A stretch of DNA of 61,439 nucleotides, counting the filler, from Collodictyon triciliatum (taxonomy: Eukaryota), in the NCBI GenBank assembly GCA_043381765.1. It is 5 parts of 5 records of this genome, joined end to end, with 100 filler letters (N's around TTAATTAATTAA, not from the genome) between each part and the next. Parts side by side here need not be neighbours in the genome. Positions count along the whole stretch, not along the records: positions 14,249 to 28,393 come from JBHJMP010001865.1; 4 more parts are not named here. The stretch is one strand, 5' to 3'. Numbering within the stretch: position 1 is the stretch's first letter; the number at the start of each line of letters is the position of its first letter. Shown here piece after piece: positions 11,107 to 59,273 of the stretch. The position numbers were made by a program, and so were the translations under genes. The notes under the pieces were generated by a model that was not told where the DNA came from, made no database searches, and saw only the letters and a list, made by a program, of their open reading frames with translations.

Positions 11107-13530
11107 CTCTCTCTCAATATGTTTAGTCAATATTTCTTGAATAATGTTAATCTAACAAATCTATATAATGTCGGGATAGGTGACGTACCGGTGACAAGAG
11201 GATATGTTGGTATTGATAATGCTGTATATAGCTTTGATGTTACCTTGATGGCATCTCATCGATTCAATTTCTTGGCTGGAGACCGCGTCGTAAAAAAACA
11301 AAGATTCGGTAACGTCATCGGCGTGCTGAACCAATCTCTCTATGTGCACTATGACGGGTCTCCTGGTGCTGAAAGGGAAACGGAAGTCAAAGACCTCTGC
11401 CTTGTTTGTCGTTACGGTACTCTATCCAACTCCTTGTCTCGAGAATCGCACTATTAAATCATATATATGTGTGTGTGGGATAATGGCATCATCCTAAGCT
11501 CAATACTTACTCGAATTTTTTTTTAAAAAAAAAATGATGGCACAGGATATCCTGGAACTTCGGTTGTGAGAGTGGCCAACGGGTCTGTGGAGGTCGATGT
11601 GTCGTCTCTCTCTACAGCAGAATACGGTTTTGCCCCAGGGGATATCGTTAACATACCCAATAATGGACGAGGCGTGATCATTGGTCTATGTGATGACCGT
11701 ATCATCGTACAGCCGCACGACCATACTGAACCAGGTGCGTGGAAGGTGACCATCAACAAGGACTTGCATTCCGTAGACTTCCAGCTGATTTGTCGCCCAG
11801 GTATTTCAACATTGTAAAAAAATTTTTGCTTTATTTGGTAATTCGCGCATATCACTATTCAATCAACTCAACGAACTCAACGAACTAAACGAACCCTCTT
11901 CTTCTCTTCTTCTCTTCTTCTCTTCTTCTCTTCTTCTCTTCTTCTCTTCTTCTCTTCTTCTCTTCTTCTCTTCTTCTCTTCTTCTCTTCTTCTCTTCTTC
12001 TCTCTCCCCTCTAGGCGGAAGTGCTTACACGACCGTATTCACACCCAATGGTGCACAGAAACTAGAAGTAGGCTTCGAAGTTTTCCAAAAGTATGGATTC
12101 AATCCAGGAGACTCTGTGCAGACACCAGAAGGGACTGGAACGGTTCTTGGCGCTACGCATGAAGATCTTGTCTTTCTTATCAATCGAAACACGCAAGTCT
12201 TCAAAGGTTCCACGGGAGCTGACCTCCGAAAAAGCGGATTTGTGATTTCTAACGAGCTTTCGATAAACACGACACACGAGGTTGTAAAGCCAGAGCTGCA
12301 AAACATCATCCGGATGGTCGGCCCTTTCCTTAACACACCGCAATCTTTGCCTGATCCGCCAGTTCCGGCCACTGTGGATAGCAAAGCAAATAGGGAAGCT
12401 GCCAGTAAATCAGTTAATGCACTCCCAGTGGCAAACCTTGTTGCAAACGCAGGGAAACCAGATATGAGACCGAATTCCGGGTCGGCTGTCCCACTTGTGA
12501 AAGTGCGAGGTAATGAAGATTCTGTGGAAAATATCGCGGATGAGTTGAAAAGAAAATGCGACTTCGATGAGCAGCCGGACGAGATGAATATAAGGATGGA
12601 GAAAATGCTAATTGAAGAGCTCCTGAAACAAGAAGAGGAACAAGGCGGGCGGCTTGACTCCTCGAGTGCGTTGGGTGTGACCAGCACCTTATTGGGTAAA
12701 TACTTTTTCTACTTCCATTTTAATTTCTATTTCCTCTGTTTGATATGCAAGGAAGCTCGTGTGGTTTCGCGTTTTAGTCGTAAAAAAAATTCCAAAATGA
12801 TGAATGCACTCCAAACAGAGACACTGAAGTCCGATAACTATCTGCTCACTTCGCGAGAGGTGTCTATTCATTCAAAGGATGGACAGCCCCAAATTCTCGG
12901 AAAAGGTGCTTTTGGAGTTGTCTACAGTGGCATCCTTTGGGGAGTGGAAGATGTGGCCATCAAAAGAATTCGCTTGAAAACAAAGAGACAGTACATAGAT
13001 GTGAAAGAAGAGTTCAAGATTCTGGCGTGAGTGTTTGTTTCATTATTTTCATTGTCAATTTTAGTTTTAGTTTTAGTTAATTGTTGTTGTTGTTGTTATC
13101 ATTCTTGTTAGTAGTAGTTTGTAGTCTTTTATATATATATACTCTTTCTTACAGTAATAATGGTGTCATGCGTGCACTTAGTAAACTGAACCACCCAAAT
13201 GTTCTTCGCATCTACGGGGTCTGCATCTTCAAATCTGAGGTCTACCTCGTCCTGGACAAATGCGACGGGGGCACCATCGAGGATCATCTGAAAACCAATC
13301 CACAATGTCCGTGGAGAAAGAGAGTCGAATTTGCCATCAACATCGGCAAGGCAATCAATTTCCTCCACCGCCGCGGAATCATCCACCGCGACATCAAACT
13401 AGCAAACATGCTCCTTCGAGGCGGAAACGCACTCTTAGCAGACTTTGGTCTGTCTCGCGTCACGGGTTCTGCAGTCGCCGGCGAGGGAACTCCTCTGTAA
13501 TGCTGCCTGATTTTGTTCATTTCATGGTGT

Positions 13531-13582
<52 letters not shown>

Positions 13583-13938
13583 AACCATGATAACTACTCA
13601 CCAAGCACCATTTCCATCACATCATGACCAATAGATACATGGCACCAGAACTGACAAAGAAAGGCGGCTATGGAAACACATCGGTGGATGTCTACGCCTT
13701 CGGCATCGGGCTTTGGTACATGAACAACCCGGAGGCGAATCCGTATCCCGGCGTCAAGACAGCAGTCGACCTGTATGCGCGAGTCCAGTCTGGGCAGCGG
13801 CCGCCCCTCCACATGTCCATTCCGCAGTCGGTTGTCACCATCATGGTGGATTGCTGGCACGGAATCCCAGAGAGGCGCCCGGGCATTAGCAAGGTTGTTC
13901 TGCAGTTGAAGGAGGCGCTGAAACACATCGACCCCTGA
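9208..13938 (+). CDS. TKL-like protein kinase with an N-terminal YbjN-like domain and about four GFxPGDxV beta-repeats
   Basis: Kinase motifs LGKGAFGVVY, VAIK, LNHPNVLRIYG, IIHRDIKLANML, ADFGLSR, GTPL|YMAPE, DVYAFG, CW...RP are joined by in-phase GT-AG introns; stop at 13938. Upstream exons MFSQGGKKAQ|AILDTL...GGR|MSVLSS are phase-compatible. An alternative start lies at 9779. Confidence 0.85.
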
Positions 13939-14148: not shown

Positions 14149-14248
14149 NNNNNNNNNNNNNNNNNNNNNNNNNNNNNNNNNNNNNNNNNNNNTTAATTAA
14201 TTAANNNNNNNNNNNNNNNNNNNNNNNNNNNNNNNNNNNNNNNNNNNN
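14149..14248. other. Artificial contig spacer N44-TTAATTAATTAA-N44 (also at 28394-28493, 42635-42734, 56868-56967)
   Basis: Identical 100-nt layout four times; the 12-mer gives stops in all six frames; genes are truncated at these points. Confidence 0.95.
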
Positions 14249-14504
14249 AAACAAAAACAAAAACAAAAACAAAAACAAAAACAAAAACAAAAACAAAAAC
14301 AAAAACAAAAACAAAAACAAAAACAAAAACAAAAACAAAAACAAAAAGCAAACAAACGAGGGTATTCGATCAACCAACCTCGTTGCTGGCTACAATTCCT
14401 CAATCTTCAACTTCCTGCCTGCCCTGGAAAGTCCAAGCTGCGCATGGGATCATATCTGGTATTCAGGTGGCCACTGGAGAGCAAGCGATCAAAAGTAAAA
14501 AAAA

Positions 14505-14758
14505 TTGGGGAGGCGTGATTGCGTCAGGTGAACAAGCTCTTCCCTCCACGGCAGCCCGGCGTGGCCTGCGCAGAGATCGAAGCGAGCGTGGTTGTACCAC
14601 AGTGCCCCTAAAGGCCGTTGTAAGTCGGTTGTGTTTGTTTTGTTTTTGGTAATTTATTAATTTTCAAATTTTTTTTGGTAATTTGATTTTTCTCTTCTGT
14701 TGAATATTATGATCTCTTTTATCTGAAGTATCACTCCAACATGGCACGCCTTGCCCCC
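14505..14758 (-). ncRNA. Putative structured ncRNA of unknown family, copy 1
   Basis: Shares three blocks with copy 2: 14514-14531 (18/18), 14601-14620 (19/20) and 14725-14749 (25/25). Has a terminal stem and internal helices with compensatory changes; oligo-T follows on the minus strand. Strand uncertain. Confidence 0.55.
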
Positions 14759-15322
14759 ATTCACTTTTGGGGAGATGAGCCTTTCATATTCTGTGCACCC
14801 AGCAAAATGTGGCTAAGTGTGGGTAGGAGAATGTCATTTTTGCGTTTCTGGGATGTCCAACGTGTCCTTGCATCAGGCTTCCGGCCCTGCTCTTTTCCTA
14901 CTCCATTGCCCAGGCGATGTCCACATTCCAGTAACCCCTTTTTGTTGGGGGATGTATAAACCTCTGACACCCTCGCCCCACTCCGCCATATTAGCGCGGG
15001 TCACCCCTCGAGATGGACTCCCTTTGCGCTTTTGTTGCCTCCTCTGCTCCCCGGCTGTGTTTGCCTCTGAAGAAGTCGACCCTAACTCTGAAGAATTGTC
15101 ATGTCCGGAGCCAAGTCCGTAACTGCCTTCGTGTGGTGATAGACAAAAGATGCATTCTTCATTTGGTGTTTTTTTATTGCAGACTTTTTCCGGCGCGTGA
15201 GGTGGTGGCTGTCGAGACGATTCTGCAGCGATGTACATCAGGTTCGCGTCGACTCGCTATGTGCATCGTGTGGCGGGTAGGAAAAGAAAAACGAAAAGAA
15301 AAACGAAAAGAAAAACAAAAAG

Positions 15323-15560
15323 TTGGGTAGCCGTGATTGCGTCAGGTGAGACCAACACACAAATACACTGCCGCAAGCGATGTGCCTGCAGCCGCATATC
15401 GAGAGTGTGCGAAGCGGTGTTGCCACCAGTGCCCCTAGAGGCCGTTGAAATCTGTGCATGATTTTGGTTTGGGTTCGTACTAACGATCGCGTGCTCTACG
15501 GATGAGAGAATGCAAATGCTTATAACGAGGAAGTATCACTCCAACATGGCACGCTAGCCC
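15323..15560 (-). ncRNA. Putative structured ncRNA of unknown family, copy 2
   Basis: Blocks 15332-15349, 15428-15447 and 15530-15554 match copy 1. On the minus strand it has a GGUG-GCAA-CACC tetraloop hairpin and CCCAACTTTTT at the 3' end. Strand uncertain. Confidence 0.55.
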
Positions 15561-16019
15561 TTGTCTCTCTCTCAGTAATTGTCGCTTTATGAATGCAATA
15601 AAAAGGTTCATTTGTTCCGCATATGGGACATTTGATGTCATCTCACTAATTGTGGAATCCATACTCTCACATCTTTTCTGCAACCTGGTCGCGCCTGCAG
15701 GCATCCAATACCAAGATTCAATAGCCGAAGAACCCTTACCTCTACGGTGGCGCCGTGGACTCGGATCATCTCTGGGATGCTTGTCGTCCTTTGAGCTTCC
15801 GAATTCCGCCTTGTCCAAGCGTTCGGGACAGGAGCAGCGGGCACTGAGTCCTTCGCCTTTGTTTCTCGCTGCTTTCCTCATTGCGCAGCGTCGAGCCACC
15901 CACCTTGACTCTGAAGGATTCTTGCCGCACCGTGCTTTTTCTTCTCGATGAGCCTGACTGAGTTTGCGACCTGTACAAGTTGCGCGGGAGTCAGCGAGGT
16001 CGCTCTGACCCACTTTCCA

Positions 16020-17560
16020 GACAACGTTTTCTTTCGCAAATGTTAATAAGGGCAGAAAGCTTCTTAGAACGGAAACAGAAACCAGTCCACGCTACTTTTC
16101 CGAGATGCTTTTAACTATATGTGGATTATATAATTTTATTGACGAAAAGTGAACCGCGGAACAAATGTGGCCTGTGGCGTGCAATATACATAAAATACAT
16201 CGGTTTTTTTATATGCCAGAGTGACTTACGGCGATGATGCCTTCTATCCATAAGCACGTTAATTCTATGAAACCTGCAGTCTTTTTCGATGCACTCATTT
16301 TCTTGCTATTACACGCATCAAAACTAGGGCTTGGGCCCATCAAAATATCATACAGATCTTACCCATTCCCTTACTTTCGCGCAGCGTATCGAATCCTTGG
16401 GCTCCTAATAATGCAGCAATCCTATTCAACCGGGACTCATGATTAATATCACAGACACTTTCATGCTGTCGACTTGTTACGAAAGGCTATAAGCGCACAG
16501 GTTCTGGGATTGATTATTTTTTGTCAGATTTATTCACATGCTAGCCACAGCTCCCCACGACCACTGCTGCAAACAATCAAACCTTTCTCAACAGCAGGTC
16601 GTTCGGAAATCATAGCAACCAAGCGGTTGATATGGAGGCATCTCTCAGCAGACAGGGAGTCTTCTGTCGCAGCGCTGAACGGTGCTTACCGCCATCTAGA
16701 AGTTGATTGAGCCGGGGACATATGGCCATGTCTACCACAGCGCACTCATCACCCGTCATAAACATATCGCCTTTCAGGTGTTTGCCCGGCGTAGAGCTGG
16801 GTTGTTGAACCTATATTCCGCATCTAGTGGCGCCTTTGTCTCTCACTTCGCATTAATCAGTAGGGACAAATACCATAAACTGTCTGTAGTTTCCTGTCAT
16901 CAGGCCTTGTCCAGTCATCTGCCAAAATACCCAATGCATCATCCCCGCACGAATCCAAGAGTTCCTAGGATTTAATCACTCGTACTTTTCGGCCAGGGAA
17001 ACTCGTCTATTACGAAAGGGTACAATGCACAGTGAGTATCGCACTTGATGTCAAGTTCATCCTAGAAAAACGATACTTTTGTCCCTTCGACGTGGCTAAC
17101 GAATATAGTAGCAAGGAAGCTAGGCCCACGGAAAGGTCCTGCACAACCAGCGCACCAGAAACTGATGAGTTAATCGTAGCCACCTGATTTCCTACTAACT
17201 CCGAAATAAACTCCTCGATTTTCTTCGAAGAGGCCCATACTCGTGGTGTCGGACATTCTATCTGTGACATTCAGGAATGAGTTTTCGCCTTACATTTAGC
17301 ACCAACAACCCCCCCCTTTTTTTCAACTCATTCCTTTTACAAGAAACACCGTTTGTCATATGCATCGTATTTCTTTAGCAGCGGCTTGTTCATGAATAAA
17401 AGATGCACCCTGAATCCATCGCCTGTATATCTTTCGGGTGTTGATGTCAGTGACACATCCCATAATGACAGCTTGATATATATCAGGGGGTTCAACGACA
17501 AGGACCAATTCTCAAAACTCATACAACCTTCGATGACCATTTGCCAGATTCTATAAGTCG
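16020..17560 (+). mobile_element. Heavily decayed Ty3/gypsy-type pol fossil (RT, RNase H, integrase)
   Basis: Colinear, broken-frame motifs: FSFANVNKG, TICGLYNF, VTYGDD (YxDD at 16227), VLGLIIF...RPLLQTIK, HLEVD, HIAF...NLYS...FAL...VVSCHQAL, FRPGK, EEAHTRGVGH, VDV...DQFSK. Order and spacing match gypsy pol; stops and frameshifts throughout; no LTRs seen. Confidence 0.65.
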
Positions 17561-17859
17561 AATTATGAGTCTTGATTGTTGACACAACAACACACACGAC
17601 TGCTTTTTTTTATTATTATTATTATTTTTTTTATTCTTCCTTTGAATTTTTGTGAGGACAAGGAGATACAAACCGTGTGTTTTGCCTTTCAGTTTCCGCT
17701 TCCACTCCAAAAAATAAAATAAAGAAACTATCTTGTCGCATAAATCGACACGAAAGATATAGAACAAAAATAAGCTAAATATTGTAAAAAATAGCAAATG
17801 GCTCGTTTCCCATTTTCTCTGTTTACTTTATGGAAATAGAACGGTCCGGGGATGCAGCA

Positions 17860-20800
17860 TTAAATAGGTGCATGGGAATCCTCGCTTGGTTTCTCTACCA
17901 TTTTTGATTGGATGGATAGAATTTGCCTTTTCGCTTCCACGCAATCTGGATGATTCTCTCCAAAGGACTCAACGAATGCTGCCTCTGCCTTCTGAAAGAA
18001 CTCTAATGCTTTCGACCATTGACCTTGGAGCAATAATATTGCACCAATGTTAAAACTAGTATGTCCAGTGCTCGCATTCAGTTCTCCAAAGACCTGCATT
18101 TTGACTTTGAGAGCCATATTGAAGTGTTCCAAAGCAGCATCATATCTATAAAAAGACAAGTTAAACATTATGATATTAAAGACGTAGAACGCCTCGTGTT
18201 TGCATGTACTTTGAGATGAAAGAAAAAGATAAATAAAAAGGATTACTTTCTGCAATTGGATATATATGAAATGTACTTTTGAATTTTTTGGTACACCGAA
18301 CCGATGTTGTTATGTGAACCAGCCACATCTGGGTGGTTCTCTTCTAATATTTCCATTTGAATTTGAAGAGATTTTTGGTAGTAATCCAACGCTTCATCGT
18401 ACCTTACATAAAAATAGAAAAACTAAATGAATAAACACCACGAATGTAAAAACAAACGAAACATATTCGAACATGAATATTCACGCCTTAGAAATTTCAA
18501 AGGATACGGAATCAACAGCAGAAAACGCAATATCGTAACTACCGTGTAAGGGTATTGTAAATGCTGCCGATATTATTATACGTTGTGGCCACATCAGGAT
18601 GTTTATCTCCATATGCTTTTATCAGGATAGATAGAGATTTCTCATAGCATTCTAGGGCATCTTGATACCTTAATGAGGGGTGTATAAAAAATTAATAAAA
18701 TAATCGAACATCTTGACCAAAGAGTATACGAAAATAAAGATAATAAAAATTTAATAAAAATTTAATAAAAATTTAATAAAAATTTAATAAAAATTTAATA
18801 AAAATTTAATAAAAATTTAATAAAAATTTAATAAAAATTTAATAAAAATAAAAGCAGAACCCAGTGTAAACCATATATTTTGGTTTTTAAGCAATCAGAA
18901 ATAAACATTTCATCTGTGAATAAAAAACCTTTCTAAGCAATCATACGCAAGACCGATATTATTGCAAGCAGCAGCCATATTGGTGCTTTCCTCTCCACAG
19001 AGTTTACGCGAGATATCCGCTGATTTCTTGTAAAATTCAAGAGCTTCATCATACCTGGCAATATTTTTCTTTACAATTTGTTATATGGTTTCTATCAAGG
19101 CCAATATACTTGGTTTAATCCTCGTCCCCTGAAGAAAAAAAAGAAGATAATTGGATTTATCATATTACTTCTCCTGTGAGATGTACACACTTCCGATATT
19201 GCTGAACGTCGCAATAAGGTTTGAATTTTCTTCTCCTAACGCTTCGCTGGAAATATCGGCGGACCTTACATAATACTCTAACGCTTTCTCATAGCTATTG
19301 AGGAAGACAAAAAAAAAAAGAATTTTTTTTGAGATGGATGTGCAAGAGTATCGTGGATTTAGTAGGAGTGTATCTGATTTATTGTTATTAATCCACTCAC
19401 TTTCCTTGGGTATCGCATATTAGACCTATATTGTTATAGCATGCAGCAACTTCAACGTGGTTCTCACCTAGAAGCTTCAATTTTATCTGAAGGTCTTTCT
19501 GATAATAATCCAGCGCCAACTCATACCTATGCAAGGCATAATTTTATATAAAAAAAACTAGAAAATCTGTCGAAAATTAAGCAGTAGCTGTGGTGGAGCG
19601 CATTTATGTGTCTTCCATGAGTACATACTTTCCCAATGATCCATAAATAGTTCCGATATTATTATATGATGTCGCCAAATCTGTATTTTCTTCTCCAAAA
19701 ACCTTGTGTTGAATTTGTAAGGCTTTCTGATAAAGCTCTAAAGCTTGTTCGTATCTATTTGCAATTTGTATAAATTCCATACCTTAATACACGACTTTCT
19801 CTTAAACATCGCAACACCCATAAAATAGGTGATTAAGTTCAACTTTAATACAAAATATGACATCTATACTTTCCAAGAGAGTTGTAAACGTTTCCTATGT
19901 TATTGTAGGATGCTGCGACATCGGAATTTTCCTCTCCAAGGAGCTTGAGTTGAATCGCCAAAGCTCTCTCATACTGCTCCAGGGCCATATTCAGCCTTTT
20001 TACATATGCATTTTCATTTACAAAATATAATGCGTGTGATACTGAGTAGAGTGCATAGAGATATTCTAACACAATTAAACTGTATGAATGTCAAGTAAAT
20101 CGACTTCAAATATTGCAATTATAGTCACCTCTCCTGATTTTTGTAACAACTTCCGATACTGTTGAGTGAGTTACATACGAATACATCTTCCTCACCAAAA
20201 AGTCTGAGATGCAGAGTGAGCTGTTTTTGGTAGTATACAAGAGCCTCATCATGTCTATATACCATACAATACCGCGCGAAATTAGTAAACTGAATAAAAA
20301 TTGCCGCAACTTTTGTAAATATCTAACCTCGTTTAGAAATACTGTGCGTTTTCTAAATCAATTTCCCCTTACCTCCCCAGAGAGCTGCATATTGCTCCTA
20401 AATTATTATAAGACTCTGATATTGATACATGCTCCTCTCCAAACGTTTCCATTTGTGCATCAAGTAATCTTTGATGACATTCTAACGCTTCTTCATATCT
20501 GAATTCATTCGAGATTCATGAAGTCAAAAGAAAATTGAAGAAAAATTTAAGAACAATTTATATTAAATTTATGCGCATACTTTTTATGAGATGAGAGATT
20601 GCCTTTTCAGAGAAGACAAACTCTTAACTAGCCATTTGTAGTCTGGAATCTTCTCTTCTGTAAAATTCTGTTCATGACTATGAATTGTTCGATTGATATA
20701 CACCATTTTCATTAGATATTGAGATAGCTGTTACCCTCATTTTTCCGATATAGAAGACGAGCCCTGATAACAGGCACCAAATATTCAAGGTCGTTTACAT

Positions 20801-23800
20801 CCTTAAAATAAGACACCAGCTTTTCTCCGAGGCTATTTGGCAACTGAAACGCAATAATGCAAAAATAGTTTGAAAGGAAGGGAATATAAATAAATAAACA
20901 AATAAATAAACAAATAAATAAATAAATAAATGAATAAATAAATGAATAAAACAATAGTACAAAGATAAAAACACGAAATCGATTAATAGAGAAACTCCTG
21001 GCAGTTGGCTCTAGCTATAATGGATTTAATTTTTATGTAATGTTACCTGAACCAAGTCTTTGTACCCACTATTGCAATTGAGGCCATTCTCTTTGAGTGT
21101 TACCCAATACGTTTTGAACGCAAAATAATTATTTTCTTGTAGCATTATTGTAACAACCTAATATTTTCAACATGCTATAGTTATTACAATGGTACTACAT
21201 TATTGAATAGGCTTTTGCTGGATGTGACATACGTTTTGTGACAGTAGGTAATCAGCCAAGTAGTCATATTGCTTCGATAAATCGAGAAAGAAGCATGTTT
21301 CAATGACTTCCTTCTCTTGGATATCTGAATGTTTATAAGTCATCGACATCCATAGAGCATACTCTTTTATTTCCGCACTTCGACATGCCTCATCACCCAA
21401 ATATCGCTCTTCACAGTATTTGAGCATGTTTTGGCGCCGGAAAGTGAACCTTTAGCATATTCAATCATCAAAATCGGAGAAAAGACTAGTATGGTACTCT
21501 TTTATGTCACAAGTTTAGCCATACCGTTCATTTACGAGCCTAAGCGACTTCAACAGTTGAAAGAAGAAAGCTTTCCTAAATTCAAAATAAGTTAATAACT
21601 CATGAGATGTATTAATGTCCAAGGTATAATAAAGTAAATGGGCTTGAATGTAGCTTATAGAAATCGTACCACTTGTTATAGCTCAATCTCGTTCTCATAT
21701 TTTTGGAGCGATATTGAATATATAGGTCCAATTCATTCTCGGATAGCCCGATTCGAGATACAGATAATACTGTCAAACACCATTGCACAATATCCACACC
21801 TGTATATTTTGTATTTAAAAAAAGATATAAAACTGTATTGTTGTTGCAGAAGTATATCTTTAGTACCAAATTTGTTTTCCCAGTGATAGATAGCTGCATC
21901 AGTTATATAATGGTCAGCTTCGGAGCTGAACAATTTTTCAAAAACTGTGTGAAAATCAAGCCATGAGACTGAAGCTTTTTCGTTTGTATAGATTGTCTTT
22001 CATATGCAATTATTTTTAAAATCTGCGTCAAAATTGAATCCATCAAATGAAATCGCCCTTTTAAAATTATTTAAAATATTTTAACGATTATTTTATTACA
22101 TCTATTTTGTTTTTTTTCTAAGCATCCTCGCATTTGAAATTCAGACACTGTTGTAATATCATCCAAGCAACCATTTCCAATTTTCTCTATAATCAAAAAC
22201 TCATCGGAAAATGATACATTTATCATATCAAACCCTGCCTCGGGGATGTCCTGTGGGAAAAAGTTGATACATAAGTAAATAGTGTTTTCTAATTTTTGCA
22301 AAAATCATCGCCATGGAAAGAAATAAAAAAATTCGCTTTACCTCGGACACATTTTCATTTAAAAGAGAAGATAAAATGACGGCAATTCCACGAGGAGTTT
22401 TTTTCGGCAACAGCCTTAATTCTAAAATATCATCTGTTTTCGAAATCCTCATTTGATCTACTGAATCGATGACAATTACAAGTTTCGTTTTCCTATTTCA
22501 AACATCGAAGTATCTTAGATATATGTATACACATAATAGTAAAACTTGCCCATGGCCCACTGAAGAATTAGTCAAGTTTTTTTTAAATTTAAACAAACTA
22601 ATTACATTTCTATTGAAACAGCTTCGATGAGTTTGACTAATCCATCCAAATCGAGGTGAAATTCTACTTAGAATACGTAATAATATTAACCCAGGTACTG
22701 ATTGAAAATAAGAAAAAAATCGTGGTAAATGAAAGAACAGAGTGACATGAAGATATTTCAATTATATTCTTTTTAAAAAATAAAGTCATGATAAAAAATG
22801 TAAATTTATGTTTACCATCTCTTAATGCATCTGGATAATTGCCTTTTTCGCGAAGGGTTTCGGCAAGACGAACCATCATGCTATTTTATCGTATGAGGTA
22901 AACACCAAAAATAAATAATACACAAATTAATAGAAACATCACTAAAAGCAAAGTGCTGTCCGTCATGTATGTTTTTGCTGCAAACCTTTGGAAATCTACA
23001 GCATCGTTTGAACATTCCACAAAGTGATAAAAAATGATTACGTCGTCCTTGCATACTCTTTTCATTTCGTGGCAGAATGTGCTTATGATCAATGACTTTG
23101 TCAAACCACTCCTGGAGCGAATCATAGGAACTTTTGAGTCGTGCGTTTCAAATTGTGAGTGCACACTTTCTAGTAAAACCTTTACAAAAGAATCACTGGA
23201 TTCATTTGCAAATAAATGATTTCTCATGAAAAGGTTGTGATGCCTATCTTGCATGGAGTATTCCTGAAGAAAGAGGAGGTAACCATTAAGAGTATTTTTC
23301 CCCGATATGAGCAGAATATACATTTATTTTAAAATTGGTTAATCCACAATATCTGCTTACATTCATATCTACGAAATCTTCATTAATAGAATCGATGAGA
23401 GCATTCACACACAATTCTGCCACATCTCCACTTTTTCCGTATGTGACGGCTTCATACTTCTTCACGATATTATCCATCAACTCTTTATTCCTGTGAATCT
23501 TTTTTCATAAATGTTTTAATATTAAGTTATTGTAGATGCGTGACAATGATTTATTTATTTATTTATTTTTAAAAATGATATTCATTACTGGTTCCTCCTC
23601 TGATTTGATTTCTTCAAGATTTTTGAAGTAGAAGAAGCATCTTCGACTTACAGGGCTACTTTGCAAACACGAGTGAAATACCTATTTGAAAGGAATATTA
23701 CATTTGACCTTATGCCAAAGAGAAGAATTATGGATAAGGCACATGAAAAACCTCATATTCTGCCAAGCTGAGTTGATGACTTTGTTTCATGTGGGGGTAT

Positions 23801-26559
23801 TTACACTCTATTTCAGAGTTACAATCAAAAATTTCATCTCCAATTATTACACCAGTTTCATTTGCACCAGTGAAAAATAAAAAGTATGGAGAATGATTCA
23901 TTGCATCCATGAAATATTCCAGTTTCTATATTTTTTTTTTTAAAAAAAGGGTTTAGATTGGCATATAGAGTCCGAATACTCTTTCAGATTACTCTTTATA
24001 TAAGTGCATCAAACGTATCAGTGCCCTACATCTGAAGAAGCTTCGTCCTTGTTCAAAAGGATGAAAACGATACTGATCCCCTTCCTCTTTGATATTTCGA
24101 ATAATCTAGTAAAATTCCGTCCTTAAATTATTACTCATAGAAAATATAGCTAATTATTTCAGAATAGATGATCGAAGATACAAACTAAACCTCTCTTTTG
24201 CAATCCCAACAACAAGTTGTGCATCGCACTTAGTTTCAGAGCATGCCGAAGATACATAAATTCGGAGTATCCTTTGCTTCATGACACTATTCCAATCATG
24301 CGTTTTGGAATAGTTTGGCAATGAGTGGGTAACACGACCCATCGGCAAATCAATTTCTGTAGTTTGCTTATTCAAGTTGCTCTCGGGCTTACTAATTTTA
24401 CCATTCTTGATTATTGCACTTCCACCAAACTCTACGACCTTGCAATAAACCTTTTAAAAGAAGGCAACATGTGAGAATAAAAACAAGCTAAAATTGAGAG
24501 TTTCAATAAACTTAGCAAAATTTTCTAAAAAGGGGTCTTTTAAGGGAGTTACTTGGTGGATTACAGCACAGACTCGCAGCAGAGCGGAAGTGCCTCTTTC
24601 CTCGTAAACTGAAAGAGACACAGAAACATGAAGTTAGCAACAATAATGTTGATAAATCTCCCAGCAAATATAGAAGAAAATCATCAACGAAGGTATGCCT
24701 GCAAATTCGATCCCATTTTCGGAGGCCAAGGAAGCCGCAAGCATAAATCGTTCGCCTGGCGTATGTATCTAAAAGAAAATTTTGTGTTCGTTATAAGAGT
24801 GATCTAACAAACCTATAAGGTGGATTAGAATGTACTACATCACGTATTCATGATCTTACTTGAGCTAATGCATAATCTATACTTTCTTCTACCACACTCC
24901 ATACAATTATCTTGGCAAATTCTACAAAATACAAGTGAAATTTGAAAAAAAGGATTGGCAATCGAGAATGCAGCACTTTTTTTTTTTTTAAAAAAAAACC
25001 AGCAGCATAAAAACTTCACCAAAATTGAATACCCACATATATTATTTAAACATTTTGTTTACCATTAAATTGTAATTCTTGGCCCTTTATGAGGTCCTCC
25101 TTGTTTTTTAGTAGGCAAATCTTAGAATACCATTCTCGGATGACAGATTGATTATGTGATACAAGAGCAGATTCGATAAGCGGCTCGTGTCTAAGAAAGA
25201 AAAAAGAAAAAAAAGAGAGGCCGAATGTAATTTAATTTATCAGTTCGTGATTGACATCTACACATATTTGTATATGTATGCACCATGAACTGCATTGTGC
25301 TTATTTGCAACTCAGAGAATTTTTGACATGACAATCGTAAGACTTTCCTACTTATTCGGTCAAATAATTATTCATTTGGGTAGAATCTTACGTTGGCTGT
25401 CGTTTATAGTATTCTCCCAGCTGCACATGCGCAATCTGTTCTATCAATTTTATTAAATAGAAACCATCCGCTAGGTCATCATTTACATCGCGAGCTTTCA
25501 TGTTTGCCCTCTCCAAATGATAGTTTATCCATTCCAGTAGGCACTGTTTTGTTTTTTTGTAGATGATTTTTAGGTCGTTTTGATATTTCATCAAATCATT
25601 CGTGTTCTATGAACTTATGATTGAAGAAAATGCAATACTCCTACAGAATACGGAAAAAGAAAACCAGCATTAAATAATACCAAAAACAAACAAACAAACA
25701 AACAAACAAACAAACAAACAAACAAACAGACAGACAGACAACAAACAGACAACAAACAAACAAACAAACAAACAAACAAACAAACAAACAAACAAACAAA
25801 CAAACAAACAAACAAACAAACAAACAAACAAACAAAAATAAGCAAACCACACACCTCACCCTCATCCTCATGAATATCCGAGTGCCTTGCTGACGATACC
25901 GATGCTCTATGCAGACTCTTGATTGAAACTGGAGTTGGAGGTTCATCCTGCGTCGTCTTGAGTAAGTCCTCCAGTCTCTCTTGCATTTCTGCGTGAGCTC
26001 CGGCCAACTCATCCATCTTTTCTCTCATTTTTTCGGCCTCACTGTCCTTATGTACAGCCTCTTTCTGCAGTGCCACGTTCTCTGCCTCGAGTTGCTCCTT
26101 CTGCTGATTGATTTCTCCGCGAAGCTTTTCAGAGTCCTTGAGCTTGGTATCCTTGTCTACTAGCAGCCTTTTTGCCTCCTCTAAATCCCTTTCAAGCGCT
26201 CGGATCCGATCGGTCAAGCGCTTTTCCTCTTGCGCATATCTATCAGCATCATCGTGCGCTGCTTCGGGCCCCACCTTCTGCTTCGATGCTCCGCCTCCGC
26301 CGCCCCGAAGTGCCGGGAAGATATGCAAACTCAGTTCTGTGCCTGGAAAGTGATTCACGCGGGCCACGCGGAGTTGGCAGCGCACTTGAGCATCTGAGCA
26401 GCCTATTTTGCTTGGATCAAGCGAGGCATCGACAAAGACTTGCGGGATGCGTGTGGGTTGGATCTGGTGGTCGGATTGGAGCAGGTGGAATGAGGCACGG
26501 TCGGGGCGACTGTTGTCCATGAGGATCGTGCCTTCTGCGGTGGAGCCGATATGCAGCAT
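17860..26559 (-). CDS. Coiled-coil + calponin-homology + nephrocystin-3-like/NACHT-like + about 11 TPR repeat protein
   Basis: ATG 26559; coiled coil; CH domain LLEWINYHL...DLADGFYLIKLIEQI...IIVWSV; RILRIYVSS (NPHP3/DUF4062-like); degenerate Walker A SRSGLTKS and Walker B LVIVIDSVDQ; 42-aa TPRs (YDxALExYxKAL...GEEHxDVAxSYNNIG). The exon joins I checked are in phase. Confidence 0.8.
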
Positions 26560-28257
26560 GGCCGCTTCTGGCTCCGTTTTTGTTCTTGTGCTTTGTGCTT
26601 GGCTTTTTCTTTGAGAGACTAGTTTATTATTATATTAATAGATATTTTATTTGTATTTTTGTTTTATTTTGATTTCATCCAAGCATTTTTTGTTGTTGTT
26701 TTTTTGTTGGTTGCCTCAGCAGATATCTCTCTTCGTTTAAGAAATACTCTGTGAGGAAGACATCCAGTTCTCTGCGTGTCAGTTGGCGGCAGAATGTGTT
26801 TGGATATTATAGAGCAAGTGTGCTTCAGGAGGAGATATTCAATCTGCGGTGTTGAAGATGACGATGTTGGGTATCTGCTGATTACCCTGTCAATCGCAGG
26901 TATTCATTCGCGCTGCGATGGATGTTGCAGACACGAGCAACTTAGGTGATGCTTCCAATAAAAACTAGGCTGAATGTCCTGATGGCGGGATAACTTCAAT
27001 GACGATTATCCACATCTCTTGCAATAAAAAGGATATAATAACATTGCAAAATAAAAAAAAAAAGTGATTCATAGGAAAAATACAAGGGTCACGAAAAAGG
27101 CAGCAAAAGGAGTGGCCTCATGGATAACCGTATGTTTTGCGCACCCTGAAAAAAAAAAATCAATCCATCAAAGCAGGAAAGCTTTTGTAATGAAACTTTA
27201 TGATTTTTTTCAACAAAGAAAAACAACAGATTTTGTTTGTAAATCAGGCACAAAGAACGAATGAAAGTTTGGTTTGTGATGGAAGATGGATGATACACAC
27301 TCTATTTAAATCCTCGGTGACGGCAAGTGTATCAAAATGGTTATAATCTGATCGAAAAAAATGAGACCGATAGCTATAATAGTAAGGCGGAAATAAAAAT
27401 ATGCAGCGATGTGGCGGGAGTTCCGGTTTGTGAATTGCGCATATTTCATTACGGCAGGCATGCGGGTGGAAAGATTGAGCTTGTAATTATTTTTTTTTTA
27501 AATCGATGGATATGTTGGACAGAAGAAGCTAAACCACCAATCTGGATGATAATCGATAAGGAGGATTCAATAAAACCGATGACATTCTTTTATGTTGAAA
27601 TCACCGCAAAAAATAAGGCTGGCGACAACTTTGTGTACGGAAAAGCCCCAAGATGGTTAAGTTTATGCAAACCCTAATATGCGTGCTGCTCTTGCAAGAT
27701 AAATGAAAAAGGCAATTTTAGACCTCGCTTGTTTGACAGATAAGGGTATTATGGCAGTCTCAGGGCTAGTCAGGCGAAGGAGGACTTTGATGAGGCGCAC
27801 CAGATGGAGTTCAGGCAGTGATGGCGTTGTTCGTGACTGAAGAATGGGGTGAATATTCGAAAACCTTGATGTCGCCAAAGTTGTATGGTTTTGTAATTTG
27901 TGGCCTCTTTCGTCTGCAACGGCATTTTGCGTTGGTTGATATTATATAAATTCCACATTTAGTGTATTGAAGAAAACCAGCACACATAAAACAACACATA
28001 AAACAACACATAAAACAACACATAAAACAACACATAAAACAACACATAAAACAACACATAAAACAACACATAAAACAACACATAAAAACACATAAAAAAA
28101 CGCATACTCTTCAATTGGTCTTATATAAACTGGGATATTAAAGGATAGTTGAACACAAGGCAATATAACTAGGGAACTCAAATACCTAAAAAAAAATCTT
28201 GGCGATCAAACTTGCATTTTTTTTAATATTTTTTTCGCAGAAAGGAACACTTTTGAG

Positions 28258-28306
28258 ATGGGCGCTTCGTCCTCAGCTCTCCAAGAAGACAGCGTCGAAT
28301 TCCATG
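28258..28306 (+). CDS. Probable first exon of an N-myristoylated protein, truncated by the contig end
   Basis: MGASSSALQEDSVEFH (MGxxxS motif) followed by a G|GTTTGG donor, then a microsatellite and the spacer. Confidence 0.4.
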
Positions 28307-28683
28307 GTTTGGCTTTCCTTGTCATCTGCAAAAAACAAAAAACAAAAAACAAAAAACAAAAAACAAAAAACAAAAAACAAAAAACAAAAAACANNNNNNN
28401 NNNNNNNNNNNNNNNNNNNNNNNNNNNNNNNNNNNNNTTAATTAATTAANNNNNNNNNNNNNNNNNNNNNNNNNNNNNNNNNNNNNNNNNNNNGAAAAAA
28501 AGAAAAAAAGAAAAAAAGAAAAAAAGAAAAAAAGAAAAAAAGAAAAAAAGAAAAAAAGAAAAAAAGAAAAAAAGAAAAAAAGAAAAAAAGAAAAAAAAAG
28601 AAAAAACAAAAAGAAAAACACACAGCCAAAGCAAAAACTAAGCACTGACCGAACTCACCTTAGAAAGCAAATAAACCATCGCC

Positions 28684-41485
<12,802 letters not shown>

Positions 41486-42468: not shown

Positions 42469-42879
42469 CTGAAACGATGTTAAAAAAAAAAAAAGAAAGA
42501 AATAGAACGGTTAAAAATAAAAACAGAAATGGAAAAAAAAGAGAAAAAAGAGAAAAAAGAGAAAAAAGAGAAAAAAGAGAAAAAAGAGAAAAAAGAGAAA
42601 AAAGAGAAAAAAGAGAAAAAAGAGAAAAAAGAGANNNNNNNNNNNNNNNNNNNNNNNNNNNNNNNNNNNNNNNNNNNNTTAATTAATTAANNNNNNNNNN
42701 NNNNNNNNNNNNNNNNNNNNNNNNNNNNNNNNNNGCATAAACAGCATAAACAGCATTTTTTTTCCTTTATTCGATTCAAAGTGTAGCGAGGTTATGCCAT
42801 ACAAAGGGGCGGGATGGGAGCGCATGGGAGAGAGCAAACGCGAGTAGGGGAAGACAATACCGTGGAGAGGTTAGCACCG

Positions 42880-44268: not shown

Positions 44269-45366
44269 GTATGCGTAAACAGAAGCAAAACCATTTTTAA
44301 AGAAAAACTGTTTTGGAAATTTAAAAATATATGTATAGACTTTGAAGAGTCCAATTACTTTATTTTATTTTTGTTAATTATGATGGAACTAATGTGCTCT
44401 TAGCGCAGAAAGAAACAAATTAAAAACGAGAATATGCAGAGAAAAACAATTAACCTTTGACTCAAACTAGGACGGTAATTCTTTCCGAGGAGAAGAGCTG
44501 TTAGATTCAATGAGGAGTATATGCATATAATTTCGCCTATCAAGAGAATCGATGGAGCATATACAAGGAGTTCTTTTTAGTCCATGTAATAAAAAAAAAT
44601 CATTGAATTTGATTTTCTCATCTGTTAGACTCCTTTTTTTGAAGCAGTTTTTGAAATCGAATAAAGGAAGATATTCTTATGGCCTTAATTTACCCATCGA
44701 TAGAAAAAAAAAATCAATAATAATACTAACAAAATTTAACCGTTAAAGTAAAAATTAAAGTAAAAGTAAAGAAAAGAAAAAGAAAAGTAAAGTAATAGTG
44801 AAAGGTAAAATCGCAAAGACGGGCGCTCCATAAAGCCTTATACATATGATATTGTAATAATAATGGCAAATTTACTGGTCTAACCAAACAAAGAAAATGC
44901 TGAAAAAACATTAATTACTGGACCACGTTTTTGAATACACAAACTACTTCAATCGACGCACGAATATTGTAATTGGATGTTATCCACGGACTTGGTCCAA
45001 GCTATAAAATCTCGTTAATGGAATTGAATTACATTCGATTTCGTTACAACAAAAAATTCATAACAAACTAATAGAAAATAGAGCACAATATATCTTGATT
45101 TTTCATGATGACCAGCGAGGCTGCGGAGAAAAGCCATAGATGCTCCGACGATTCTACAGGTTCGACAAATACACGAGACACATTAGAGGAATTTACTATA
45201 AAGGAAAACATACATTTACCACATCTTTCTTCATACCCTTATGTATTTTCTGGAGTGAAATGATGATGTGCAAAAGGCCATGGGAGGATATGGCCATACT
45301 AATGAATATTTCATTCGCATTTTTTTGTGTTATTCTACGCTTCTGTCATCATTTGGGAATTTGCAG

Positions 45367-47170
45367 ACGATAGAAAGACCAAAGGAATTCACAACACGGC
45401 TGAACCGTCATTTTCTCAAATACTTCGAACTGATTCATTCATCCAATATCAAAATAAAATTACATTATACAATTTGATAAAAACAAAAAGAAAGTATTAT
45501 AGCCACTACACCACAAACGAGATAGCCCATGTAATGTACATGATATCGTCTGGTGTCAGCTACCTTCATGGAAGAAACATGTATCATTTGAGGATTTCAT
45601 CATCAGCTGTTGTTATCGAAGGAGATAGAGTCAAATTGACTGATACCAGTGGCTGTTTGTATCATACAGAGGATAAAAATCGATGGGTTGATATAAGGGT
45701 GGATGAATCCAAAGGTCTGAATTTTCGCTGGGCTAGTCCTGAGTGGTTTACAGGCATAGTAAAACCGTGGTGTGCAGATATATTTTCTTTGGGTACATTG
45801 GCATGGGCTACATTCTATATGGCTGAGCCGTTTGGAGGATGGACGCTTGAGGAAGTCAAGGCTAGGTTTCTTTCGCGTGTGTCATTGCCCGTCCCAGGGT
45901 ATGTTCCATATTTTTGGAATGATATAATTACAAGATGCTGGTCGTTTGACTTAAACACACGACCAACCTCCGATAGCTTAGCTCGAGAAATATTCACTTT
46001 TATCCAAAAAAACATCGCTGAACCGCCGTTTGGGATACAAATAGGTAAACAGAAAATACTGTAATTGATTCGGTTAAAAGAATAAAAAAAAAAAAGCGTC
46101 AATATTAATACTATAAAACCATAATCTAATAAACTTCCCTCCCTTACAAAGCACAAGATGCCAACAAAAAGATGTGTCTGCAAGTAAAAATTGCAAGGGA
46201 TGCCCTTTCCGAGCAGAGAGCTCGTGCTCTAAGTGGGATTTTTCATGCTTTAAGATTAACAAATCAAGGTAATTACAAAGAAGCAGTGGAAGCTTTAACC
46301 GAAGCACCTATGACGGCCGATGGCTCCTTTTTTACACTTGTCTTCCTTTACGCACTTTACACTCACTTTCCGTATCTCATCCATACCCCACGGACTGTAA
46401 TTTGGGAAGAAGAGTTTCTGGGTAAGATAAGAAATGTGAAGAGGGAGGACCAAGCACGGGGGTTTGAGGTGATGTATGAGGCAAAAGAATCTACACCATG
46501 GTTGCGGTATTTGTGCGGGCTGTGTCTGATTTCAGGGTGGGGTGTTTGCCGGGATGACGTTCGAGCATACAGCGTTTTTCAAGTTTCCGCCGACGAAGGA
46601 TGTCTCGGCTCATCTTGTAGTGTTGGAGTGTGCTACTTGCGGGGCTGGGGAGTGGAATGCAACCTTGCCAAGGCTGCAGAATGGTTCCAGAAAGCTGCGG
46701 CCAGTGGCTCGGTTTATGCTCATTTGCTGCTGGGTAGAATGTTCGAGGAGGGAATCGGCAAAGAAAGGAACGCAGCTAAATCTGTAGAGCATTTTCGGCA
46801 CGCCGCAGAAATGCAAAACCACACAGCACAGTTGAACCTGGCAAACTGTTACAAGAATGGGTTTGGGTTGCCTCAGGACATGGGTTTGGCTGTATGTTGG
46901 TATCGCATGTCTGCAACGCACGGAAACCCATTTGCATGGATATGTCTCGGAAACTGCTTTTCCAGTGGGGAAGGAACCAACGTAGATATAGTCCAGGCCA
47001 TCAAATGCTATCAATCAGCTTGTGGACTGGGTGTGGAGGTCTCTCGCTATTATCGCTCCGGTTACATCATTTCGAGAGTGGATGAGAGTACTTTGGACAT
47101 GTGCGCACGAATATGGCACAGAAAAGCACAACTCAAGGTGAGCAGTGTACTGCAGTGTGAGAACAGTTGA
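45367..47170 (+). CDS. TKL-like pseudokinase fused to SEL1-like repeats; 5' exons unresolved
   Basis: ISSGVSYLH, HLRISSSAV (no HRD), KLTDTS (no DFG), RWASPE, ADIFSLG, CW...RP. A phase-1 intron joins this to about five SEL1 repeats (GxCYxxGxGV..D...A..WF..AA..G). Confidence 0.75.
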
Positions 47171-53747: not shown

Positions 53748-56867
<3,120 letters not shown>

Positions 56868-56967
56868 NNNNNNNNNNNNNNNNNNNNNNNNNNNNNNNNN
56901 NNNNNNNNNNNTTAATTAATTAANNNNNNNNNNNNNNNNNNNNNNNNNNNNNNNNNNNNNNNNNNNN

Positions 56968-57057
<90 letters not shown>

Positions 57058-57794
57058 AAAAAAAAGGAAAAAAATCTACGTTATAAGAACACAAAAAAGG
57101 TCTACACTTTTTGATGGAATGTGTTAGAGAACGATTTATGCTTGTGGAGCTAAAAATATATTCTATTCTCGCTGAGAAGACTTTATGGACTTTGTTCTTA
57201 TTTCATAAGAGTGAATCTTATCCTTTCCCTCTCAAATCATATTATTTTCATAAAAACGATCCAATCTTAAAAAGAAATAATAATGAGTATAGATAAAAAC
57301 AGAAATATCATATTAATGAATTTAAGAGATAAATCAACAAGACAACTCACTTAAATGATTAAGATATGCCGCTATATGCTCAAAGAAATCGAGAGACAAA
57401 AGCATCCCTTACATCAGAAAAAGTCAATATCACTTGTTATTAAGGGCGAGTAAGACAAATAAAAGTGAGTTAGCAAAGTCTTCAACGTCTATTAAAAGGA
57501 AATATTAGGTGAATTATTGCAGACGATTTTCCTCAAACTGAAAGGATTCGTCAAGGATAAAAAAAAAAAGTATAAGTTTATATATATTCAAAAGGTAGAC
57601 TTATATAAGCTTCANNNNNNNNNNNNNNNNNNNNNNNNNNNNNNNNNNNNNNNNNNNNNNNNNNNNNNNNNNNNNNNNNNNNNNNNNNNNNNNNNNNNNN
57701 NNNNNNNNNNNNNNNNNNNNNNNGGATGAAGAGATTAATAGTACATTATAAAAGACATATTTTTTTTCAGAGAAAGAGGATAAAAAAATTATAC

Positions 57795-58524
57795 CTGATA
57801 TACTGCCAGAACGCGATTGAAGCGCTGAACCGAAATCCATTTTTCCTCTACAACCTTATATATACAGGAAACTTCCATCACGATTTACTGAACAGAAACA
57901 AAATGTTATGCGCGATATATATAAAAACTAAATAAATTCAAAGCAACACAATAGAACACAGAATAAAATAACATAAAATAACATAAAATAACATAAAATA
58001 GAATAAAATAGAATAAAATAGAATAAAATAGAATAAAATAGAATAAAATAGAATAAAATAGAATAAAATAGAATAAAATAGAATAAAATAGAATAGAATG
58101 AATAAAGCATGATTCAACTAAAAAAGGAACTATAGCAGAATGAACACATAAACACATGGCGTGTGCCACAACCAACCAGCTGCTGCTTAATCATGGCGAT
58201 TTGCGCGACAGGTCCGCCGAAAGCGCGGAGGCCAAAGGAGGTGAACATGAGGAAGAGAGACCAAAGCGACAACACCGGAGCCACAAACGTCTCAGCCTGC
58301 TCCACATCGGCAGGAGTGTTTTGCGGAGGTTCCTTCCAAGCAGAAGTGTTCGGCTGTGCGGGAGTTGCGTGAGGATCAGTGTTTGCAGGCTGCACAGCTT
58401 TCATTTCAACGGGCTCGGGAAGAAGTCCTGCAGTGTCGTTGTCTCTCAGCATAGCGCGCTTGCTTGAGATGAAACAACAAGGGTTAGCTTTGCGTGTTTG
58501 TTGGTAGTCTTGTCCCTTTAACAT
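57795..58524 (-). CDS. Chromate ion transporter (CHR family), N-terminal exons only
   Basis: LFLMFTSFGLRAFGGPVAQIAMIKQQLV|EEKWISVQRFNRVLAVYQ matches the CHR FGGP...WIS motif; start at 58524 or 58452. Confidence 0.85.

Positions 58525-59234: not shown

Positions 59235-59273
<39 letters not shown>

Follow-up and report, generated by a model that had tools for sequence, protein, structure and literature searches.

A pair of diverged genes for an abundant, unspliced RNA of about 240 nucleotides in Collodictyon triciliatum, with a design suggestive of RNA polymerase III transcription

We describe here two related RNA genes of the protist Collodictyon triciliatum. They lie in a window of 61,439 bases from assembly GCA_043381765.1 that consists of five joined parts, and both are on the part taken from record JBHJMP010001865.1 (positions 14,249-28,393). 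An earlier note on this DNA, made from the sequence alone, had pointed to two units, copy 1 (14505-14758) and copy 2 (15323-15560), that have four blocks in common, each identical or different at one base. Alignment and window searches bear out the coordinates and the block identities given there. The 18-mer CGTGATTGCGTCAGGTGA occurs at exactly two sites, 14514-14531 and 15332-15349 (18/18); these are still the only sites when up to 3 mismatches are allowed, and none of 100 dinucleotide shuffles produced a match. The 25-mer GAAGTATCACTCCAACATGGCACGC is identical (25/25) between 14725-14749 and 15530-15554, and the 20-mer AGTGCCCCTARAGGCCGTTG agrees at 19/20 positions between 14601-14620 and 15428-15447; neither has a further site in the window at up to 5 substitutions. 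The fourth block is the short string GCCTGC (plus strand), found at 14564-14569 and 15384-15389.

The conservation is confined to these blocks. In a MAFFT alignment of the minus strands the identity is 25/25 in the 5' block, 19/21 in the central block and 18/18 in the 3' block, whereas the sequence between the blocks is about 35% identical, i.e. at chance level (39/106 in the linker, 26/77 in the region of the P4 and P5 hairpins). The linker is 104 nt long in copy 1 and 82 nt in copy 2, as the note had said. The contrast between blocks and intervening sequence agrees with its view that an RNA under purifying selection is encoded here.

Both units give rise to a discrete, unspliced and abundant RNA, at a level far above that of neighbouring transcripts. 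An index of public sequencing runs was queried with 1401 bases. Among the 24 public runs listed, 20 hold part of the stretch, with 12 recorded as RNA and 13 studies represented; the matching runs are mostly metatranscriptomes from freshwater, lakes, aquaculture, wastewater and wetlands. The top share of query words is 0.20, roughly what the two units would account for, and 16 further runs, size-fractionated wetland libraries and two named-organism runs among them, share only 0.11-0.17 of the query. Four runs were mapped onto the stretch, three as contigs from three studies (X1, X2 and X7) and one as raw reads (X23). Contig coverage is limited to 14512-14751 and 15330-15551; the summed word depth on the units is 28-344 in X1, 36-210 in X2 and 0.6-6.6 in X7, and it is 0 at 14350-14490, in the spacer (14773-15242) and at 15572-15750. 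The sole exception outside the units is a set of foreign, low-complexity contig matches of low likeness on an A-rich microsatellite (15282-15321). Since carry-over of DNA would also have covered the flanks, depth confined to the units points to RNA.

The boundaries of this RNA are sharp. Copy 1 contigs tile from 14512, 14513 or 14514 to 14750 or 14751 (X1, X2, X7), and copy 2 is represented by contigs 15330-15445, 15416-15546 and 15515-15551 (X1), 15330-15485 (X2), and 15332-15437 and 15408-15538 (X7). An Illumina adapter adjoins 14514 and 14750 in X1 and 14751 in X2, so short fragments pile up at these ends. We read the contig and adapter ends as an RNA length of about 237-240 nt, close to the discrete transcript of 240-250 nt that had been expected. 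The AT-rich linker of copy 1 is spanned without a break by contigs 14612-14751 (X2) and 14624-14750 (X1) and is thus retained in the RNA; the linkers, which had been regarded as mere spacers, lie inside the transcript. A spliceosomal intron, to which GTAAGT at 14620 and TACTAAC in copy 2 might have pointed, was rejected because the linker is kept in the RNA and 14621 reads C instead of T in X1, X2 and X7 alike. The only joint in the contigs is found in one low-depth X1 contig (depth 10.4), in which 15444 is directly followed by 15515, so that 70 nt of the copy 2 variable domain (15445-15514) are missing; the next 37 nt hold 5 differences. This contig may represent a third member of the family or a related strain with another variable domain.

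The same data bear on the idea that the units belong to a mobile element, as its ends or other parts, to a retroposon resembling a short interspersed nuclear element (SINE), or to the exons or untranslated regions of a protein-coding gene. The transcript with its A-rich internal stretch, if made by RNA polymerase III (Pol III), recalls SINE RNAs, and an ATG in a conserved block opens a plus-strand open reading frame (ORF) of 72 amino acids in copy 1. The RNA coverage, however, ends at 14751, outside that ORF, while the corresponding ATG of copy 2 meets a stop after three codons and yields no ORF of at least 20 amino acids; no ATG-initiated ORF of at least 20 amino acids is common to both units. 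Coding through the blocks on the minus strand was also discarded, as the ATG there gives M-L-E-stop and there is no splicing; exons are further opposed by the lack of splice joints in the linker. As to mobile elements, there are only two tandem copies in 61 kb, with no other block matches, and the candidate promoter described below is external and not internal as in a SINE. We consider this whole group of explanations very improbable; that the blocks are neither coding exons (contigs, ORFs) nor a repeat within the window (block searches) is in line with the earlier note.

The strand of the RNA is where our analysis departs most clearly from that note, which had placed it on the plus strand. 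The opposite orientation is well supported, and we regard it as very probable that the RNA lies on the minus strand. On this strand the end of each unit is followed by a run of T, namely T8 at +8 in copy 1 and T5-G-T5 at +9 in copy 2, while on the plus strand T4 follows copy 1 and no run of four T is found within 72 nt after copy 2. Among the 14 invariant pairs of the closing helix, three are G·U on the minus strand, and the central hairpin and the base of P5, the long hairpin, contribute one such pair each; on the plus strand all of them would read A·C. As these G·U pairs turn into A·C, the plus-strand consensus loses the 6-bp core of the invariant closing helix. The single-sequence fold z-scores are -2.78 and -1.09 for the minus strands and -0.62 and +0.72 for the plus strands. 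The substitution 14550 G>A is fixed in X1, X2 and X7. Whichever of the two candidate local folds is taken, the minus strand still forms G·U at this pair, where the plus strand would have A·C; X7 adds 14560 C>T, by which an A-U pair results in one of the two candidate local folds.

The orientation of the sequencing libraries agrees with the minus strand. An adapter that we take to be of the read-1 type follows the right end only (X1, X2), and one that we take to be of the read-2 type precedes the left end (X1). In most stranded libraries, which are commonly prepared by the deoxyuridine triphosphate (dUTP) method, read 1 is antisense to the RNA. Read 1 here reads the plus strand, so that the RNA lies on the minus strand if the libraries are dUTP-like.

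An RNA on the plus strand as first proposed, closed by a terminal stem GGGGAGGC/GCCTTGCCCC and perhaps containing crossing helices, seems to us quite improbable. Its RNAalifold consensus is no worse (-30.35 kcal/mol, 41 pairs, 10 changed on both sides), and contigs by themselves are strandless; RNAalifold energies are alike on both strands, and we discarded them as an uninformative strand test. Against a plus-strand RNA stand the missing T-run after copy 2, the absence of an upstream element common to both copies, the loss of six pairs of the invariant helix, the two z-scores, the fact that the outer GGGG/CCCC of the terminal stem falls outside the observed RNA ends, and the adapters, whose orientation would need sense-stranded libraries in both X1 and X2. 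The case illustrates that a strand call from pairing alone is unsafe, since terminators, G·U pairs and library orientation overturned the first reading.

Read on the minus strand, the RNA is predicted to be enclosed by a long closing helix, formed by the 25-nt 5' block and the 18-nt 3' block, which runs from CGUG/CACG over an internal loop (CCA/CAAU) to UGUUGG/CUGACG and, past a bulged A, GUGA/UCAC. The predicted pair probabilities are 0.46-1.0 in the outer part; in the inner part they are 0.31-0.39 in copy 1 and 0.71-0.89 in copy 2. The 5' strand of the helix is followed by a conserved single-stranded UACUUC and then by the variable domain (104 or 82 nt), which in copy 1 is A-rich and nearly unstructured (-2.7 kcal/mol). 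Next comes the conserved CAACG-[GCCU-YUAG-GGGC]-ACUG, whose sole variable base (Y/R) would lie in the hairpin loop, then a short hairpin, GUGG-UACAA-CCAC in copy 1 or GGUG-GCAA-CACC in copy 2, and finally a long imperfect hairpin that differs between the copies in sequence and length and carries GCAGGC on its 5' side near the apex in both. A pairing of the GGG leader with the CCCAA trailer is also possible, yet both lie outside the ends seen in the RNA. All 40 consensus pairs (40/40) are standard in both copies, 11 of them being changed on both sides, and the helices fit the minus strand no worse than the plus strand. The hairpin GTGG-ttgta-CCAC/GGTG-ttgc-CACC and the terminal stem that had been put forward as covarying are real in both copies; the covariation itself rests on two sequences.

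A pseudoknot or switch had also been suggested, on the basis of a GTGAT/ATCAC helix crossing others. On the minus strand this pairing is part of, or a competitor to, the nested closing helix, and the fold predictions offer no support for either a pseudoknot or a switch. Switching of the 5' block between partners was considered and rejected: as an isolated duplex, the pairing of this block with the 3' block (-12.4 kcal/mol) is nearly matched by that with the central block (-11.8 kcal/mol), but in the full RNAs the latter reaches a probability of at most 2%, and it loses one pair in copy 2.

The environmental contigs show which parts of the RNA tolerate change. The Y/R loop base of the central block varies in these contigs too (14611 and 15438). 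The run X7 holds a diverged relative with 9 changes in 14513-14635, including 14592 and 14593 inside the loop of the short hairpin, and its 3' block and GCAGGC are untouched. One X7 contig departs completely from copy 1 within the linker, after 14655, which fits a fast-evolving variable domain. The features of both genes are collected in Table 1.

Table 1. Coordinates of observed and proposed features of the two RNA genes in the window
Feature	Position	Strand	Basis
Copy 1 RNA, about 237-240 nt	14512..14751	-	contigs X1, X2, X7 and adapter ends
Copy 1 predicted body of primary transcript, GGGGG leader and CCCCAA trailer able to pair	14505..14758	-	proposed; GGG/CCC outside RNA ends
Copy 1 T8 run, candidate Pol III terminator, 8 nt beyond RNA 3' end	14497..14504	-	sequence
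Copy 1 invariant 5' block GCGUGCCAUGUUGGAGUGAUACUUC, predicted 5' strand of closing helix	14725..14749	-	block alignment, predicted fold
Copy 1 variable A-rich domain, 104 nt, predicted largely unpaired	14621..14724	-	contigs; -2.7 kcal/mol; 39/106 identity
Copy 1 central block CAACGGCCUYUAGGGGCACUG with predicted hairpin GCCU-YUAG-GGGC	14600..14620	-	alignment, fold
Copy 1 predicted short hairpin GUGG-UACAA-CCAC, then long imperfect hairpin with GCAGGC (14564-14569) near apex	14532..14599	-	fold
Copy 1 invariant 3' block UCACCUGACGCAAUCACG, predicted 3' strand of closing helix	14514..14531	-	alignment, fold
Copy 1 candidate promoter: ATGACAT 14831-14837, USE-like TACCCACAC 14817-14825, TATA-like TATGAAAG 14781-14788	14781..14837	-	proposed
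Copy 2 RNA	15330..15556	-	contigs 15330-15551; 5' end set by homology with copy 1
Copy 2 T5-G-T5, candidate Pol III terminator, 9 nt beyond RNA 3' end	15311..15321	-	sequence
Copy 2 invariant 5' block	15530..15554	-	alignment
Copy 2 variable domain, 82 nt	15448..15529	-	contigs, alignment
Copy 2 central conserved block	15427..15447	-	alignment
Copy 2 invariant 3' block	15332..15349	-	alignment, shuffles
Copy 2 candidate promoter: ATGACAT 15635-15641, USE-like GTCCCATA 15622-15629, TATA-like TTCATAAAG 15585-15593	15585..15641	-	proposed
USE, upstream sequence element.

Upstream of the two minus-strand genes, an ungapped alignment places ATGACAT, CCCA and AAAG at equal offsets in both copies. 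The CCCA element reads TACCCACAC in copy 1 and GTCCCATA in copy 2. It is followed, after about 28 bp, by TATGAAAG or CATAAAG; this TATA-like element is about 30 nt ahead of the G-run (14758 in copy 1). PMC8287931 gives RTCCCWTA (Stentor), GNCCCAYW (Plasmodiophora) and ACCCAYAW (a green alga) among the consensus forms of the upstream sequence element (USE) of type 3 promoters. The CCCA elements resemble these consensus sequences, and as a promoter argument for the minus strand the resemblance is only suggestive. Soon past the RNA 3' end, both copies have the run of at least 4-5 T expected of a Pol III gene of the small nuclear RNA (snRNA) type. Two T-rich microsatellites were noted on this strand: (GTTTTT)n downstream of copy 1, at 14249-14347, with the filler pattern at 14149-14248 ending right beside it, and (CTTTTCGTTTTT)n at 15280-15321, directly behind the terminator of copy 2.

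With a probability of roughly 0.6, we interpret the two units as a paralogous pair of minus-strand genes of the snRNA type, transcribed by Pol III, that belong to a new family and encode the scaffold RNA of an abundant ribonucleoprotein. An snRNA-type Pol III design is suggested by the candidate external USE/TATA-like promoter, the T-run, the lack of a shared ORF, the tandem diverged paralogues and the high RNA level. The genes would have an external type 3 (snRNA-type) promoter, with an (A/T)CCCAYA upstream element and a TATA-like box about 28 bp downstream. Transcription would probably start at the G-run and stop at the T-run 8-9 nt past the RNA body, the signature of Pol III; the GGG leader could pair with the CCCAA trailer, and both would be trimmed to leave a stable RNA of about 237-240 nt. 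Its most likely role would be that of the backbone of an abundant ribonucleoprotein, in which the invariant helix and the central hairpin may serve as protein docking sites and the variable domain as a module specific to each paralogue. Polymerase, processing and fold are thus what we infer, and the suggested function is read from gene design and architecture only.

Several points weigh against this interpretation or against parts of it. The gene type and the ribonucleoprotein assignment were deduced from sequence and contigs. The promoter elements were chosen post hoc, and a 7-base run at offsets differing by at most 3 turned up by chance in 867 of 20,000 shuffles. In Arabidopsis the spacing between USE and TATA box is 23-24 for Pol III and 32-34 for RNA polymerase II genes, according to PMC8287931, and the spacing of about 28 bp found here falls between these values and is non-diagnostic. 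Assembled contigs fall short of proof for the RNA ends and the strand, and each unit is pieced from several contigs, none full-length; the raw reads of X23 gave only 3 reads of low likeness, on the flanking microsatellite. The adapter argument from X1 and X2 presumes libraries of the dUTP type. Consensus folding is equally good on the two strands (-29.3 kcal/mol on the minus strand, as against the plus-strand value given above), and the inner closing helix is weak in copy 1, where the pair probability is only 0.31-0.39. Finally, there are two full sequences only, the alignment of their variable parts is unreliable, and the pairs were counted on the alignment that produced the structure, by which the controls are biased.

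A more far-reaching version of our interpretation can be formulated as well. We speculate that the genes may belong to an undescribed modular Pol III RNA family, in which an invariant protein-binding scaffold (closing helix and central hairpin) bears a hypervariable, largely single-stranded module of 80-100 nt. This module would be wholly different from paralogue to paralogue and from one close strain to the next, and each member would have its own nucleic-acid or protein target, in the manner of a programmable guide or decoy ribonucleoprotein. We hold this to be rather improbable. A search for antisense targets of the variable domains and of P5 within the window returned low-complexity matches only.

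The main rival to a new family is that this RNA belongs to one of the known families with a type 3 promoter or Pol III transcription (U3, RNase MRP or RNase P, signal recognition particle (SRP) RNA, 7SK, Y or vault RNA), so far diverged as to be beyond the reach of Rfam models. The host appears poorly sampled, and the best relatives of its proteins are only 29-58% identical; size, abundance, closing helix, clustering of paralogues and promoter type are moreover common to several of these families. On the other hand, the Rfam 15 check called for in the earlier note returned no credible family. At gathering thresholds there are 0 matches in the whole window, and with relaxed filters and an E cut-off of 10 the 4227 models gave 5, 1 and 1 matches for the region and the two units, respectively, at 12-19 bits (thresholds 45-100), none of them common to both units. 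The SRP, RNaseP_nuc and RNase_MRP models gave no match at E up to 10. ARAGORN reported neither transfer RNA nor transfer-messenger RNA. The motifs looked for were GNAR/AGCA of SRP helix 8, the conserved regions CR-I and CR-V that form P4, boxes A and B, and the RUGAUGA/CUGA pair of box C/D RNAs. Inspection of the units by eye revealed no GNAR/AGCA motif, no CR-I of the GAAAGUC type and no box B, and there was no conserved match to an Sm site, to spliced leader RNA or to U1-, U2-, U4- or U5-like motifs. UGAUGA is present in neither copy, so that the kink-turn pair of box C/D RNAs was not found, and no U3 or C/D match in Rfam is common to the copies; CUGA does occur in the 3' block, 6 nt from the terminal stem, where it is paired in the model, which is not a kink-turn arrangement. 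Paralogues with 35% identity outside the blocks would also be unusual, as most such RNAs are single-copy or near-identical duplicates. We therefore find a diverged known family unlikely, if well worth keeping in mind. The note had also mentioned a ribozyme or a cis-element, and nothing indicates either.

It is useful to compare the general architecture with that of known small RNAs, among which Y and vault RNAs appear the closest, although the defining features of both fail here. Y RNAs, which are associated with Ro60 and occur in animals and some bacteria, have a type 3 promoter, a T-run, a conserved end stem, a variable loop and clustered paralogues. The likeness lies in the T-run terminator, the end-paired stem around a fast-evolving loop, the clustered diverged paralogues, the abundance and the (here putative) external type 3 promoter. 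The RNA described here is, however, two to three times longer (about 240 nt versus the 70-120 nt required), has no match to the Rfam Y_RNA model (RF00019) and has no bulged helix of the Ro60 type; its contigs lack a retained 3' U-tail, and its variable domain is A-rich and not pyrimidine-rich. Vault RNAs are made by Pol III, as is proposed here, and resemble this RNA in that their two ends form a panhandle around a variable centre and their paralogues lie in tandem. They differ in being 80-150 nt long with internal boxes A and B, whereas the four conserved blocks here hold no box-B-like sequence and there is no match to the Rfam Vault model (RF00006).

Two further groups of genes can be compared in the same way. 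In plants, ciliates and other Diaphoretickes, the type 3 Pol III genes (U6, U3, SRP, MRP and telomerase RNA) have their elements in the order proposed here, with a CCCAYA-like USE first, then a TATA-like box and lastly a T-rich terminator, but the transcribed sequence matches none of them, there is no telomerase template, and the spacing of about 28 bp is non-diagnostic. The Class I RNAs of Dictyostelium appear similar in being lineage-specific and in having an upstream element, a short stem that joins the two ends, and an interior that is variable apart from one conserved motif. They are, however, only about 40-65 nt long, are encoded by many gene copies and bear no sequence relation to the RNA found here.

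Telomerase RNA deserves separate mention, since it is of the Pol III type in plants and ciliates. The candidate type 3-like promoter, the T-run, the length of about 240 nt and a closing helix around a single-stranded A/C-rich stretch would all suit such an RNA, and PMC8287931 and PMC10723376 provide precedents for duplicated telomerase RNAs. The two single-stranded domains, however, have no periodic template-like string (at least 1.3 repeats) in common, those strings that are shared sit inside helices, and no pseudoknot is predicted. The central block does contain CCCUAAA, as one repeat only and on the plus strand; it is A/G polymorphic between the copies and in the environment. Two paralogous telomerase RNA genes are thus hardly probable at all.

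Metagenome contigs searched with two block patterns, exact or degenerate, gave 0 matches each. For a 17-mer, 9 matches in prokaryote genomes and 2 in viral contigs were dismissed as chance, since at 0 of the 11 loci are the other two blocks present at up to 4 substitutions. In the collections searched, we found no homologues beyond the two paralogues and the environmental variants. The block strings, written in DNA and in RNA letters, were not found in the full-text Creative Commons (CC) literature, supplements being outside the search; that the RNA is not in print rests only on these text searches and on Rfam.

Basic machines of the cell are built around small stable Pol III RNAs such as 7SL, Y, vault, 7SK and telomerase RNA. 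To our knowledge, nearly all known families of such RNAs come from animals, fungi and plants. Here, the metatranscriptomes of three independent studies contain a discrete, block-conserved RNA that no curated RNA model recognises, and its host protist is itself scarcely represented in protein databases. Should the RNA belong to a new ribonucleoprotein, one family would be added to a short list; should it be an extremely diverged version of a known RNA, the range of that family would be widened and a seed would be available for searches in neglected eukaryotes. The finding is firmer than the sequence alone allowed, as an abundant and discrete RNA is indeed expressed from the units. The orientation first proposed, and the structural details with it, appear to have been wrong, and the family is unclassified.

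The surroundings of the two genes also call for a few remarks. The window is eukaryotic. The neighbouring kinase and phosphofructokinase (PFK) genes are broken by introns, and a kinase search for taxonomic relatives found nothing. A kinase gene with short introns (11789-13935) precedes the RNA genes in the window, on another joined part, and a further ORF with a Tyr/Ser-Thr-like kinase domain, directly followed by a Sel1-repeat ORF, is located at 45306-47170; these two ORFs are possibly one gene. Between them, at 35474-41482 on the plus strand, flagellar SHIPPO (Sperm-tail PG-rich repeat) ORFs form either one very long gene or a tandem cluster, the closest proteins being from ciliates and green algae (29-32% identical). 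The PFK gene (53751-55972, minus strand) has many short exons, one of which is 58% identical to the PFK of Diphylleia rotans and 41-46% identical to fungal and animal PFKs. A pattern of 44 N, 12 bases and 44 N recurs at 14149-14248, 28394-28493, 42635-42734 and 56868-56967, with a spacing of 14,233-14,245, and is the filler between the joined parts. The region 56001-60103, near the right end of the window, has a very low GC content of 0.20-0.27 and contains runs of 410, 109 and 830 N.

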